This document shows positions 2,565-55,711 of a stretch of DNA of 64,000 nt, in pieces. The first letter of the stretch is position 1. The number at the start of each line of letters is the position of its first letter. The notes beneath the pieces are model-generated. The model was not told the DNA's origin. It saw nothing but the letters and a program-made list of their open reading frames with translations, and searched no databases. Source of the stretch: Octopus vulgaris (taxonomy: Eukaryota). The DNA is taken from the NCBI GenBank assembly GCA_951406725.2, contig OX597818.1, forward strand, positions 32,674,001-32,738,000, read 5' to 3'. The translations under genes and the position numbers were made by a program.

Positions 2565-3013
2565 TAGCGAGAAGTTGAGGTTATAAGATATAATAGTGTC
2601 ATTGTGACCCAAAGGTGTCAGATAATGCTGTCAGGTAATGCTGACAGACCATAGTTATTTTCCAGATTCGGTAATATTGCGAATAAAGGGTTCAATATTG
2701 GTTCTATGTCAGCGTATTGGACTTTTGGATTTTACTCAAAGGATATTGGAATATTGCATATATACCATTATGCCTATAAAGCGGATTTACAAATTCAATA
2801 ACCATAGATATCTTACATCTATTTTCTTTCCTCCACATCACTCTCTATTTGTATCACATAGAAACTAACTATGACTTAATTTTTCCTCTCACACCGTCTC
2901 AGATGAAGGGATATTATTAATTAATATCCTAGAAACAGCTGTAAGACCTTATATCTATAAATGCTCTAATATCTATACAACCTTGGCTTTTTATCTTATT
3001 ACGCATAAAATTT
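2565..3013 (+). mobile_element. (TA)n-flanked non-coding element carrying a degenerate hammerhead motif (Penelope-like pLTR-type)
   Basis: Bounded by (TA)n on both sides. At 2896-2947: GTCT-CAGATGA-a-[GGGATATTA/TAATATCCT stem]-a-GAAACAGCTGTA-AGAC. Confidence 0.6.
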
Positions 3014-3217
3014 ATATATATATATATATATATATATATATATATATATATATATATATATATATATATATATATATATATGTGTGTGTGTGTGTGTGTG
3101 TGTGTGTGTGTGTGTGTGTGTGTATATATATATATATATTTATTTATTCATTTATTTATATATATAGATATATGATGCAGTATATAATATATGATATACA
3201 GTGTGTACAATATATAT

Positions 3218-3325
3218 GATGGTGTAGGGAATGGGGAAAGCTTGATTTGCAATTTTTGCAGTCGTGTATTCTTGTCAAGAGCAGGGCTCATTTGCCACCA
3301 ACGGAGCCACAAATGCAAAATATAA
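3218..3325 (+). pseudogene. 3' terminal fragment of an RTE-type LINE ORF (C-terminal C2H2 finger)
   Basis: Translates DGVGNGESLICNFCSRVFLSRAGLICHQRSHKCKI*, a C-x2-C-x12-H-x3-H finger of the type that ends RTE/BovB-like ORFs. Confidence 0.6.
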
Positions 3326-5155
3326 GTTAGTCTGAGAGCGCACAATGTTTTGATTGCAAAAGTTAAATATACATAACTGTCAATGAATATTTGTTGTACA
3401 GTAGCAAAGTTTTAAGAGAAAGCTCTTTCTTTAAAAGAAAAAGAATTGTTTTTATACAAATGTTATCAATTCTCCCTTCTCTCTTCCGATATAGAATAGA
3501 GATGGACTTCCACTATTCCTTATATCTGTTCAGCTACCGAAAGAGCTTTGTAGATAGATTTATGAGGTCATTCATGATTTCCAGCAGAAGTGTAATAATG
3601 TGATGTTTAGTGATCAGCAGAGTACGTAGTGTTTATGAAGCTGGCATTGGCATATAACAAACGTTAAAGCTGGAAACAAAAGAAAATATACAATTAGTCT
3701 GATTATGAAATGTAAATATTAGAGCATATCTCGATTTATTCATAAATTGTCAATGGACACAAAAATTAGAATATTTTCTATAGACGATGTAAAGACACGG
3801 CTATTGTCAATTTAGCATCAGTACTACTTTGATACCCAGCAAAGCAGTAATACTGTCTGAGATATAGGAATTGTGGTAACATCTACTTTGCAGCTACATA
3901 TATATGTACATATGTATATATATATACACACACATATATATGTATATATATATGTATATATATATATATATATATATATACTTTATTCATACATTTATGA
4001 TGTCTTTGCTTCCTCTGGTATATATGTAGATATATATATGTACTTATTTATATATACATATATTAATATATAAATATATATCTACATAGGTGGTGCTATT
4101 AAGTTAGACATGGCCTGGGCCAATAATGGCCGAAACCTATCAAAGTATCAAAGTACATATATGTACAATTATATATATACATTTATATACATTTATACAC
4201 ACACATATATATAGTATATATATATATGTATATATATATATATATATATATATATATATATATATAATACAAATATACAAATATATATATATAATATATA
4301 AATAATATATATGATCTATTACATATATTATATATTACATATTATATATTATATATATAATATGTAATATATAATATGTAATATATAATATATATAGAAA
4401 AAGATAGATAGATAGATAGAGTGATAGACAGATATAGCTATATATAATATATATCATATATATTATACATACATATATATAATGAACTAATGCCTACATA
4501 ACCTACTATTTGTATGTCACTTCTCTTCAGAAAGAAGCTGATGGAAAAAATTCGAGGCGAGCAAAGTATATATCATCTCGAAATATTCTTTGGTAGCGTT
4601 TCTGTCAATGAAAACCATTCACTTTAACACTGGTTACATATATATTCATTTCCTCTCATGGAACTTGTATAATTTTGTAATAACCTTATATTTAAGTTCA
4701 TGTAAAACTAGTAACTTTATTTATTTACAGTTTATTAAGAATTTATATAATGTTGCTACATCGCCCAAAGTCTATAATCAAAAGCGTTCCGACTGTCGCC
4801 ATAGCTTTATTTGTTTATTTATTTAGTTATTTATCTATTTTTATTGCTAAGCATATACAACTACAACCAAATTATCTGATGCATCAATTATTATTATTAT
4901 TATTTTTTGTAAAATCGTAAACTATGATTTGGAGGTGTTAATGCTGCCATTTCTAGCTGTTCATGCGATTACATAAATCTACCATCGTTATCTCGTAATG
5001 CATTTACTACAGAGCGATTAAAACGCGTCAGCATAGTTTCGTGGTAGAGTCCTTGGAAAGGCTATTTCGTTATTGTTGAAGCATATTTTTTGAAAAGCTG
5101 AAAGTATATATAAAGCGGTGCAGAATTCACAGAGGCCAGAAGCTACAATGACAAT

Positions 5156-5442
5156 GTTTCCTTTCTTTCTTTGCCCTTTTCAAGCATAGCCAGGCTCATG
5201 GGCCCGGTTTTCCGGTTTCTGTGGCGTATGTGTCCCCCCCCCCCATCGCAGCGTTACTCAAGAAACAGGAACAGAGAGTGAGAGAAAGTTGTGGTGAAAG
5301 AATACAACAGGGGTCACCACCACCCCCTGCCGGAGCCTCGTGGAGCTTTTAGATGTTTTCGCTCAATAAACACACACAACGCCTGGTCTGGGAATCGAAA
5401 CCGCGATCCTCCGACCGCGAGTCTGATGCCACTTGCGCTTCC
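5156..5442 (-). mobile_element. SINE family D (V-like tail subfamily)
   Basis: Homologous to 57882-58176 and 59415-59716. 10-bp target-site duplication (TSD) CAATGACAAT at 5146-5155 and 5443-5452. Confidence 0.85.
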
Positions 5443-5557
5443 CAATGACAATTAGCATACAATTAATTATATATTTAATTATCGCAAATTTCTTTGGTAG
5501 GAGGTGGACTTGCCCCCAAAGTATTGTTTGAAGAGAGTACTTTTCTGTATAGCTCTA

Positions 5558-52609: not shown

Positions 52610-54190
52610 AATAATAACATCAACTACAATAATAATAATAATAATAATAATAATAATAATAATAATAATAATAATAATAATAATAATAATAATAATAATA
52701 ATAATAATAATAAATGTGTTGAGAGGCAAAATATAAGGCTAAAAACTGAAAGCGCTATGAGATCTCATTCACAGCTGGCTTCAGCGTTAACAACATTAAC
52801 ACCAACAGCAATAAGAAAATTAACAACTACATGAAAAACAATAAGAACGATGACCATGACGACGACAACAACAGCAACAACAACAGCAACAACAAGTATA
52901 AGAATAATTACTCTAACTATAGGCATCGACGGTGACAGCAAATCTAGCATCAGCAATAAACAGCAGTAATAAGAACGACAGTATTTTTTTTTATAAATTA
53001 TTATTTTTTTTTGTTTAGAAATAAGAACAACTAAATTAACAACTAAACAAATAAAAACAACAACAATAGTAATTATAATAATAATAATAACAATAATGAT
53101 GATATCAATAATAATTATAACAACAACAATAATAATAATGATGATGATGATGATGATGATATGATGCTGATAAATATGATGATGATAATAATAATACTAC
53201 TAATAATAATAATGATGATGATGATGATGATGATGATGATGATTATGATGATGATTATGATATTCTGATAAAAATAATGATGATAATAATAATAATAATA
53301 ATAATAATAATAATAATAATAATAATAATAATAATAATAATAATGTTAATAATGAAGATGATGATGTGGAGGAGGAGGAGGATGATAACAACTTGGAAAA
53401 CAACGGAAAGCGACTTCATGAGTGATAACAATCATAATCTTAAACAATGAGAATGGCCATAATAATAATAATAATAATAATAATAATAATAATAATAATA
53501 ACAAAAACTACAACAACAACAACAACAACAACAAAAATGGCAACTACAATAACGAGAATGACTATAACGCTCCGATAACACAGCAGTATGAGGAAAAAAA
53601 TACAATACAACATATAAAAAATATTATATATGCCCAGTAAACAACGACCAGCATAAACAACAAAGATAAACAACAGAAACAACAACAATAAACTACTACT
53701 ACATTAAGAACAAGAGCAACAACATTCTTCGCAACGAAAGCAACAAAAACGACAACGATGACGAAGATGACAAGAGAAGAGCAGCAACAGCAGCTGCAGC
53801 GGTAGCAGTAGTAGCAGCAGTAGCAGCAGAATTGACATTAACAGCAGAACAACGATGACGACAACAACAACAACACGAGCAACATCAGCAATGAAACATC
53901 ATCAGTTGCAGAAGTGCTACCACCACTACCACTGCCACCAATAACAACAAGAACAACAACAACAACAACAACAACAACAACAACAACAACAACAACAACA
54001 ACAACAACAACAACAACAACGACAAAAAAAAGAACAAATAAAAAAATTTAAAAATACTGATGACAAGATCAACCAACAACAGCATAAAGAGCTGCAGTAA
54101 AAAGCGAGAATAACAACAAATACAACGACAGCAACATGAACAGCAACAACAACGCTATCAACGGTAATGGCGAAGGACGACGACAGCTAA
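52610..54190 (+). repeat. Long degenerate trinucleotide field (AAT/AAC/GAT/CAG)
   Basis: Direct reading of the sequence. Confidence 0.9.
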
Positions 54191-54287
54191 ATGATAAAGT
54201 GTAAATTGAAGTCACATTGACATCAATTTTAATCAATTCAAGAAAATTGCATTCTCCATCTTGTTATTTAATATTTAGAAATGAGGA

Positions 54288-55153
54288 AGGCGGCGAGCTG
54301 GCAGAAACGCTAGCACGCTGGGCGAAATGCTTTGCGGAATTTCGTCTGCCGTTACGTTCTGAGTTCAAATTCCGCCGAGGTCGACTTTGCCTTTCATCCT
54401 TTCGGGGTCGATTAAATAGGTACCAGATGCGCACTGGAGTCGATCTAATCGACTGGCGCCCTCCCCCAAAATTTGGGACCCTGTGCCTTGACTAGAAAAG
54501 AATATTTAGAAATAGGAAGGCGGCGAGCTGGCAGAAACGTTAGCACGCCGGGCGAAGTGCTTTGCGGTATTTCATCTGCCGTTATGTTCTGAGTTCAAAT
54601 TCCGCCGAGGTTGACTTTGCCTTTCAGGGTCGATAAATTAAGCACCAGTTACGCACTGGGGTCGGTGTAATCGACTTAATCCTTTTGTCTGTCCTTGTTT
54701 GTCTTCTATAAATTTAGCTCCTTGTGGGCAATAAAGAAATAAGAAATGTTAGCATGCCGGCGAAATGCTTAGTGGTATTTCGGCGAGCCGGCAGAAACGT
54801 TAGCACGCTGGGCGAAATGCGTAGCCGTATTTCGTCTGCCGTTAAGTTCTGAGTTTAAATTCTGCCGAGGTCATCCTTTCAGGGTCGATTAAATAAGTAC
54901 CAGTTACGCACTGGTAATAATCGACTTAATCCGTTTGTCTGTCCTTGTTTGTCCTCTCTGTGTTTAGCCCCTTGTGGGTAGTAAAGAAATAGGTATCTTG
55001 TCTGTCTTTACGTTTCTGAATTCAAATTCCGCCAAGGTCGAATTTGCCATTCATCCTTTCAGGGTCGATAAATTAAGTACCAATTGCGTACTGGGTCGAT
55101 CTAGTCAACTGGCCCTCCCCTAAATTTCGGGCCTTGTACCTAGAGTAGAAAAG
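54288..55153 (+). mobile_element. Family C SINE cluster (monomer plus multimer)
   Basis: Repeated GGCGAGC(T/C)GGCAGAAACG.TAGCACG heads at ~54292, ~54522 and ~54782. Confidence 0.9.
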
Positions 55154-55402
55154 AATATTTAGAAATAGTATATTTCTGCGTGAGTCTACAAAATGATGTG
55201 TGCTTGTATATATGACGTATATATACTTGAGCGAGGGCGTTCATTTTGTGTATAATGCGCATGTGCAATATACATACATATATATATACGTATATAAATA
55301 TATATATTTATATATATATATATATATATATATATATATATATATATATAATAATAATAATAATAATAATAATAATAATAATAATAATAATAATAATAAT
55401 AA

Positions 55403-55711
55403 TATGAGGGAATATTATTCCAAACTTACAGGGGAAATTTCAATTTAGCAATACTAAATCAAAGTTCACAAATATAATACATATATATGAATTAGAAAAA
55501 AACACCCTTTTATCAATTTAATAATGAAAAATTAAATTATACCATTTAGAAAAATTACATATTATAGAAAGATTAAATATAAGATAAAACATATAACGAT
55601 GATTAAGTAATGTGCAAAATAATAAATAAAACGTATATATTTGGTAGAATAACGACACGTGTTTCGTGGCTATATTTATATCTTTAACCTGAAGAGTGGC
55701 TATATTTATAT
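55403..55711 (-). mobile_element. Family F element with a rearranged hammerhead motif
   Basis: Terminus homologous to 16000-16040. HHR halves lie on opposite strands at 55650-55711. Confidence 0.6.

Follow-up and report, generated by a model that had tools for sequence, protein, structure and literature searches.

The window analysed here is a 64,000-nt stretch of the Octopus vulgaris genome (assembly GCA_951406725.2, contig OX597818.1, forward-strand positions 32,674,001 to 32,738,000; coordinates below are those of the window), which carries a layer of hammerhead ribozyme motifs that are probably the remains of Penelope-like elements (PLEs). It has 36% G+C, about a sixth of it is simple repeat (masking covers 10,613 of the 64,000 bases), and it contains many dispersed repeats. 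An earlier note on this DNA had named nine hammerhead or hammerhead-like sites in several unrelated contexts. All nine hold hammerhead-like sequence at or near the named coordinates, but their quality is very uneven, and only the one at 15125 on the plus strand is complete and canonical; the contexts are not all unrelated either, since the sites at 20078 and 25070 belong to one family (family A) and that at 18956 to a relative (family B), the other sites not being so grouped. The hammerhead layer is a known kind of PLE debris. What is new is family A, with a fixed U at core position 6 and a free position 7, a non-canonical core in the most abundant family that the earlier note had overlooked.

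Family A is present in four plus-strand copies of 71-83% pairwise identity, which measure about 190-215 bp when full length. One of the two full-length copies, 19998-20212, has its hammerhead at 20078-20115 (core 20083-20089 with U6), with a bulged A, a 4-bp helix II, an ACGU stem III and a cut site after 20110. The other, 25003-25194, lies within the microsatellite at the centre of a half copy of a repeat resembling a short interspersed element (SINE; 24829-24979) and has its hammerhead at 25070-25105 (core 25074-25080, U6 at 25077, N7 at 25078 and N17 at 25101). Two further copies, missed by the earlier note, are 5'-truncated: 16995-17097 starts inside helix II and ends in (TA)n, and 19836-19981, which lies head-to-tail with the 19998-20212 copy across a short (TA)n, keeps the core from 19854 with U6 and has a decayed GAAA box. 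All three copies that retain core position 6 have U there. The 5' ends differ among the four copies, but all four share the same 3' end, about 90-110 nt past the cut site and followed by (TA)n, and both full-length copies begin at the same motif (20001 and 25007). Family B, 56-66% like family A, comprises a plus-strand copy at 18886-19092, itself 56-63% like family A, whose hammerhead (18956-18990) has a complete architecture with A at position 6 and two other core mismatches, and a plus-strand 3' fragment at 21560-21635, 72% like the former, which ends in (TA)n and has no hammerhead left. If four copies per 64 kb were typical, an extrapolation from one window, family A would number tens of copies per megabase.

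The state of the family A core was followed in public contigs, using 25003-25194 as the reference, accepting contigs at 80% likeness and listing differences from 5%. Four of 24 runs were covered (X1, X2, X4 and X16; organism codes A, A, B and E, that is, three codes), with 1,335, 15,195, 14,921 and 7,221 contigs aligned, respectively. All 24 consist of contigs and none is recorded as RNA, although X1 may be; no RNA run on record is listed as containing 14181-15225. The depths are summed word depths and not copy numbers, contigs drop rare variants, only single-site shares are obtained, and one run may be the source of the window. In all four runs position 6 (25077) is U, with no other letter at 5%, and U6 is therefore the state of the family in these runs rather than decay in the window. 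Seven variant rows fall between C3 (25074) and N17 (25101). Three of these lie at 25078, position 7, the free position of the hammerhead, where A accounts for 3-26%, C for 12-21% and U for 20-30% of the depth, and G for the remainder. The sole change in helix II, C to U at 25085, retains a wobble pair; the U of the window is the minority letter, and C, at 84-98%, gives a full Watson-Crick helix. The other rows are G to A at the first loop base (25086, 8-25%), C to U in stem III (25098, 1.5-5.6%), which is a CpG, and A to U, the only change seen, at N17 (25101, 2-51%). Positions 25074-25077, 25079-25084, 25087-25097 and 25099-25100 are invariant at 5%. With the rows at 25085 and 25098 set aside, five of five changes fall on the 6 free positions out of 28, a crude chance of 0.0005 that leaves out shared ancestry. 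In run X2, the depth over the motif is about two to three times that of the flanks.

These shares bear on whether the ribozyme matters at all. All the motifs, including those of family A, could be the dead, truncated tails of long autonomous PLEs, with U6 a neutral change inherited from a successful master and the ribozyme irrelevant. Such an account fits the published finding that most minimal hammerheads in genomes are single and ascribed to truncated PLEs (PMC4209133), and two of the four family A copies are indeed 5'-truncated; moreover, about 90% of the 192 reference positions have no row at 5%, so that an invariant core is partly expected. However, a position that admits three alternative bases (N7) between neighbours that admit none is what a constrained core looks like. 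The loose ends listed for the contigs point in both directions. Those before 25008 (16, 76 and 99 contigs, ending in CAG) have a low agreement of 0.41-0.43, as for unrelated flanks, and together with the common start of the full window copies they suggest a preferred 5' end, which speaks against mere truncation; a second cluster before 25067-25068, with an agreement of 0.61-0.75 and a median length of 69-109, shows subfamilies with a different, longer 5' part, which speaks for it. On balance we regard this explanation as unlikely. Because both full-length copies start at one motif and the public contigs cluster loose ends there, family A is probably a short, non-autonomous family. Several such ribozyme families had been proposed for this DNA; the proposal stands for family A alone, the sites present as single copies having the look of PLE ends that were truncated or inverted.

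A U at position 6 is unusual for a hammerhead. Single mutants of the CUGA region had low activity in one tested hammerhead (PMC9901934), and an A6C hammerhead was slow in magnesium and active in manganese (PMC7151607). The nearest natural case is the A6C hammerhead of phage Bcep176 (PMC3088659, PMC7151607), which shares with family A a natural change at core position 6; it is a single phage motif with C6, measured low activity and a preference for manganese, whereas family A is a multi-copy animal repeat with U6, known from sequence alone. All 56 representative motifs in Figure S3 of PMC4209133 have A6, which that search required, and so does every core listed for the Hydra clade of PLEs in PMC8557442. 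No natural A6U hammerhead was found in these two sets of motif tables or in a literature search outside which most subscription papers lay; one paper pairing 'hammerhead' with 'A6U' was set aside, as its A6U refers to a twister ribozyme. By analogy with the mutants, the fixed U at a normally essential letter would likely make family A a weakened ribozyme variant. In fold predictions for the 20078-20115 copy, A15.1 is paired at 0.42-0.98 when position 6 is U, compared with 0-0.06 when it is A, and with U6 the ACGU palindrome of stem III is predicted to pair back onto the core; with either letter, alternative dimers come out as more stable than the active one. The family A pattern had no match in viral contigs and none in prokaryote genomes, and a single metagenome match was rejected as chance, being unrelated GC-rich DNA without the core or helix I.

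The hammerhead-like motifs as a group are real and above chance. A strict descriptor, composed once the sites were already known and modelled on the published PLE consensus, required a helix I of at least 4 bp, CUGANGA, a helix II of at least 4 bp in which bulges were allowed, GAAA, a palindrome as stem III, and H17. In the window it found 1, 4 and 5 sites at zero, up to one and up to two core mismatches, compared with means of 0, 0.017 and 0.24 and maxima of 0, 1 and 2 in 300 dinucleotide shuffles of the non-repeat sequence, a frequency above the shuffled background. The site at 15125 has a perfect core, those at 2900, 20083 and 25074 join it at up to one mismatch, and 18960 at up to two. A looser descriptor gave 2, 7 and 27 sites against means of 0.1, 2.4 and 16.8 in 30 shuffles, with a maximum of 28 at two mismatches, and is thus mostly noise at that level. 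Half-sites consisting of GAAAC and a palindrome numbered 19, compared with 6.4 +/- 2.4 in 200 shuffles; four of the 19 (48992, 54534, 54794 and 55016) were rejected as hammerheads, being members of an unrelated repeat family, which we take to be a SINE.

That the motifs are chance matches in AT-rich repetitive DNA is accordingly hardly credible, even though the looser descriptor is noisy, four named sites (11401, 14271, 34187 and 55650) fail the strict one for structural reasons given below, and Rfam offers no help. The strict descriptor leaves far more sites than the shuffles do, and the family-wide pattern at N7 and N17 obeys hammerhead rules. Chance origin is ruled out by the strict descriptor for 2900, 15125, 20083 and 25074, and is possible for 14271 and 34187. 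A hammerhead match in Rfam, which had been looked for as confirmation, is absent from the best 150 of 325 matches to the whole window, a listing dominated by microRNA models matching microsatellites; none appears up to E 10 at 15090-15210 and 19998-20210, and four small regions scanned on their own, these two among them, were empty of ribozymes of every class, including twister, which was sought at two fold-back or inverted elements. This silence may well reflect poor model coverage of minimal motifs. The giant squid genome has been reported to contain 235 Rfam hammerhead matches (PMC6962438), and the available sections of an octopus repeat study (PMC13282606) do not mention ribozymes or hammerheads.

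Among the sites outside families A and B, the core of CUGANGA and GAAA with an NUH cut site is complete at 15125, split across the two strands at 55650, and accompanied by a poor helix II at 11436. The sole complete canonical type I hammerhead found (15119-15179, plus strand, core 15125-15131) satisfies the strict descriptor and has a 6-bp helix I, a 5-bp helix III with one central base, and its cut after 15173. The plus-strand element at 2567-3012 lies between two (TA)n tracts and carries a minimal type I hammerhead (2896-2947), which also satisfies the strict descriptor; its architecture is complete, with one mismatch in the core at 2900-2906 (U4 to A), a long helix II, an 8-nt palindromic stem III, a cut after 2943 and (TA)n 70 nt downstream. 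Two minus-strand motifs are decayed. That at 11401-11440 has a perfect core (11436-11430), GAAA and ACAUGU (11414-11406) and a mismatched helix II; that at 34187-34239, read by eye and missed by both descriptors, has helices I, II and III of 4, 5-7 and 3 bp, an imperfect 5' core (UUGAUAA-like) and (TA)n about 25 nt upstream of it. The minus-strand element at 14181-14400, which ends in (TA)n, has a doubtful hammerhead (the site named at 14271), in which the 5' core (14389-14383) is 95 nt from the GAAA and 8-nt palindrome (14287-14277) and helix I has just 2 contiguous bp.

The last of these sites lies in a minus-strand element at 55385-55719 that ends in (TA)n/(TAA)n. The plus-strand part, 55685-55719, comprises one arm of helix I, a core without mismatch, 16 bases that make up one arm of helix II, and a palindromic loop; the minus-strand part, 55681-55650, supplies the complement of that helix II arm together with GAAA, a palindrome of 8 bases, C17 and the helix I arm that matches the first. 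With its halves on opposite strands, the motif cannot fold from any single strand. The break point is the loop of the 16-bp helix II, and the site looks as a canonical hammerhead would if broken in its loop by a 5' inversion, of the kind for which the twin-priming model accounts.

The published background makes a PLE origin attractive. Minimal type I hammerheads lie in PLE pseudo-long terminal repeats (pseudo-LTRs), are thought to act as dimers and have low activity in vitro (PMC4209133). The window motifs resemble these in their short helix I, the bulged base before helix II, the G10.1-C11.1 pair and the palindromic stem III, as well as in forming many dissimilar families per genome, mostly as single dispersed copies, sometimes on opposite strands; they differ in that no linked reverse transcriptase-endonuclease frame was found. 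The U-rich 5' flank, the bulged base after A9, G10.1-C11.1 and the palindromic stem III agree with the PLE consensus of that study; the last three occur together in family A (20083, 25074) and in part at other sites. The identification of the motifs as PLE-type minimal type I hammerheads, already made in the earlier note, is thus borne out, and PLE remnants are present in the window. In addition, PLEs of the Hydra clade, including Hydra-1_Obim of Octopus bimaculoides, carry their hammerhead close to the 3' end and use (TA)n as insertion target (PMC8557442), so that the combination of hammerheads and (TA)n targeting had been described before. The window elements share these features and the inverted, 5'-truncated copies that are typical of PLEs, and a helix III of 3-5 bp with a central base is found both in the Hydra-clade table and at 15125 and 34187; the window motifs are not, however, among the Hydra motifs listed there. 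The role of the hammerhead in PLEs is stated to be unclear in the same source.

Anchoring in microsatellites is a further resemblance. Of the nine named sites, seven have a TA, CA or GT tract no more than 130 nt away, that at 55650 is 166-304 nt and that at 11401 more than 1.2 kb from one, so that most sites are indeed near one, as had been claimed. For 11 sites, namely the nine named and the two extra family A copies, a (TA)5+ tract starts 60-135 nt downstream of the cut site in seven, compared with 5.3% of background positions. Insertion into (TA)n, as in endonuclease-bearing (EN+) PLEs (Hydra, Naiad and Neptune), is thus seen at 7 of 11 sites and in three independent lineages. 5' truncation with inverted or tandem partial copies, another trait of EN+ PLEs, is also present.

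The same elements could be read as non-LTR retrozymes, in which two ribozymes cut tandem units into monomers that are circularised and copied back. Animal retrozymes (PMC7229834; bioRxiv 10.64898/2026.07.22.740005) resemble the window elements as small non-coding units with a type I hammerhead that are believed to be mobilised by PLEs and also occur as solo monomers, and they have been proposed to derive from PLE pseudo-LTRs. The 190-215 bp unit is within the published range, one head-to-tail pair exists (19836-20212), and one X1 contig joins the family A 3' end back to 25072. However, the upstream unit of this sole pair has a decayed GAAA box, so that the window has no intact array and no head-to-tail pair with two complete consecutive ribozymes; the motifs are minimal rather than of the canonical type reported for retrozymes, the family A core is altered, and the copies share a fixed 3' end at (TA)n instead of permuted ends. 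Retrozyme status, which had been considered for these families, is not supported here, and we judge the retrozyme cycle an improbable source of the elements.

Coding remnants of PLEs are found in the window itself. The GIY-YIG remnant noticed earlier at 43810-44001 is real and longer, extending over 43630-44010 on the minus strand as a decayed, stop-containing endonuclease from the C-terminus of a PLE-like element; its Pfam GIY-YIG match (E 0.0028) falls short of the curated cut-off. A search of 1.84 billion proteins gave it 52 relatives at E up to 0.001, the best being from Octopus bimaculoides (44% identity, E 2e-21); of 13 relatives scanned, seven match GIY-YIG and one of the 13 also RVT_1, and some carry upstream a YVDD motif, presumably the catalytic motif of reverse transcriptase. 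A profile built from these relatives touches 41374-41448 (plus strand, E 0.004) and 41617-41697 (minus strand, E 0.014), which read like further endonuclease pieces. This brings the GIY-YIG-like remnants to three, the second being 40900-41460 (plus), which is interrupted by an inserted repeat bounded by a short direct repeat, and the third 41617-41700 (minus). No hammerhead core follows any of the three in the 320-490 nt checked (490 nt for 43630-44010). A word-based protein search with the 43630 remnant gave no match, and a further one returned only pseudoscorpion elements, which match just the remnant at 43765-43890.

Taken together, these observations make it fairly probable that the motifs are the 3' ends of several PLE families, copied from RNA into (TA)n and mostly decayed, accompanied by the abundant short family A with U6, which is likely a non-autonomous passenger of the same machinery. 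A PLE endonuclease would nick (TA)n and the reverse transcriptase would prime at the 3' end of the element, premature stops or second priming giving rise to truncations, inversions and fold-backs. In family A, U6 may weaken or silence cleavage so that RNA with both motif halves survives for copying, and the fold may be retained either for slow, dimer-dependent cleavage or to serve a PLE protein as a signal; the fixed remainder of the core could then reflect residual cleavage or recognition by such a protein. Since a DNA copy with both halves of the motif needs uncut or rejoined RNA, a weak ribozyme is no hindrance to a short passenger. More tentatively, and with rather less confidence than for the layer as a whole, we propose that family A is a very abundant short retroelement of cephalopods whose hammerhead is under selection, with A6U fixed across several species, the ribozyme being either tuned down so that uncut RNA is copied or a catalytically quiet fold recognised by a Penelope protein.

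Several points weigh against these proposals. No compensatory double change is visible in the family A helices from single-site shares, and contigs diverging upstream are clipped, so that A6 relatives could be undercounted: in X2, 25078 has about 43% of the depth of 25098. In some A6 variants, too, the predicted fold pairs the C and G of ACGU with the core, which leaves the fold argument weak. A (TA)5+ tract is missing at the expected spacing in four of the 11 sites (11405, 15173, 34188 and 55654); five of the seven TA-adjacent sites belong to families A and B, so that just three independent lineages back the spacing, and the 60-135 nt range was picked after the data were known. The anticipated link of each family to a PLE reading frame did not emerge, no such frame being tied to any hammerhead in the window. 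A tblastn search of PLE proteins, none of them of the Hydra clade, against nine upstream regions gave three weak, low-complexity matches only, Pfam had no relevant match for the translations upstream of four motifs, and a word-based protein search with the translation upstream of 14389 had no match; the likeness of the translations upstream of 11436 and 14389 to Hydra/Penelope endonuclease ends is by eye and unproven. Truncation and decay would erase an upstream frame of reverse transcriptase and GIY-YIG endonuclease.

For the genome of a PLE-rich invertebrate, such a layer is nothing unusual, and its outline is already published. Family A, in contrast, has multiplied with a change expected to cripple cleavage while the free positions alone vary, and so offers a direct test of cutting versus recognition. 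If the above holds, the family would amount to a natural experiment on which of these two roles makes hammerheads necessary to PLEs. It also shows that searches based on CUGANGA overlook entire abundant families.

Long fold-backs in similarly anchored elements, also pointed out before, are present at four places (15731-15881, 19199-19586, 38561-39290 and 39834-40011), the first three anchored in microsatellites. The first forms the 5' end of a plus-strand, (TA)n-anchored element (15731-16041) with a 69-bp fold-back and no hammerhead found, which resembles the 55385 element at its 3' end. The second belongs to a plus-strand, (TA)n-flanked element (19199-19760) with about 190 bp per arm and no hammerhead found, and the third is a (TA)n-flanked element (38561-39290) whose ends are inverted repeats of about 160 bp and which has neither a hammerhead nor an Rfam match. 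The inversion at 55650 and the four fold-backs fit the published inverted, 5'-truncated PLE copies (PMC8557442).

Some smaller observations adjoin the hammerhead sites. A splice-donor-like hexamer, GTAAGT, occurs at 15090-15095, 30 nt upstream of the intact hammerhead at 15119-15179, and introns adjoin the hammerhead motif in the 5' regions of Drosophila PLEs (PMC4209133). At 60975-61116, a 49-bp direct duplication surrounds a (TA)n tract, each copy with an apparent hammerhead 3' half only (60995 and 61088), and these are possible remnants; another possible, eroded remnant at 4110-4142 has a 4-bp GC helix followed by GAAAC, between TA-rich tracts, with the core eroded. Two related (TA)n-flanked elements at 6335-7200 and 38570-39280, the second without an Rfam match, share a hairpin followed by CUGAGGA, which was rejected as a hammerhead for want of a matching helix I and GAAA. 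A 46-bp inverted repeat (11141-11186 and 11281-11326) joins the tail of the 11436 element to an opposite-strand relative without a visible hammerhead.

The remaining repeats are of other kinds. Repeats of about 390 bp built around a central TA/CA microsatellite form a family that we take to be a tRNA-derived SINE; its copies lie at 9977-10369, 27386-27757, 30739-31124, 34848-35257, 39331-39730, 46379-46750, 60509-60897, 61567-61967 and 63183-63569, together with fragments. No tRNA genes were found. Partial tandem copies of the repeat family that is the source of the four false GAAAC-palindrome half-sites lie beside (TAA)n at 32137-33721, 48974-49219 and 54270-55168. The 3' fragment of a non-LTR retrotransposon at 55848-56520 ends in (TAA)n, has no Pfam match and resembles an R4/Dong restriction-like endonuclease end, and the element at 11827-12396, with 32-bp inverted ends, reads to us like a decayed mariner transposon. 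Finally, a 232-bp direct repeat (42918-43148 and 47538-47767) is 94% identical between its two copies.

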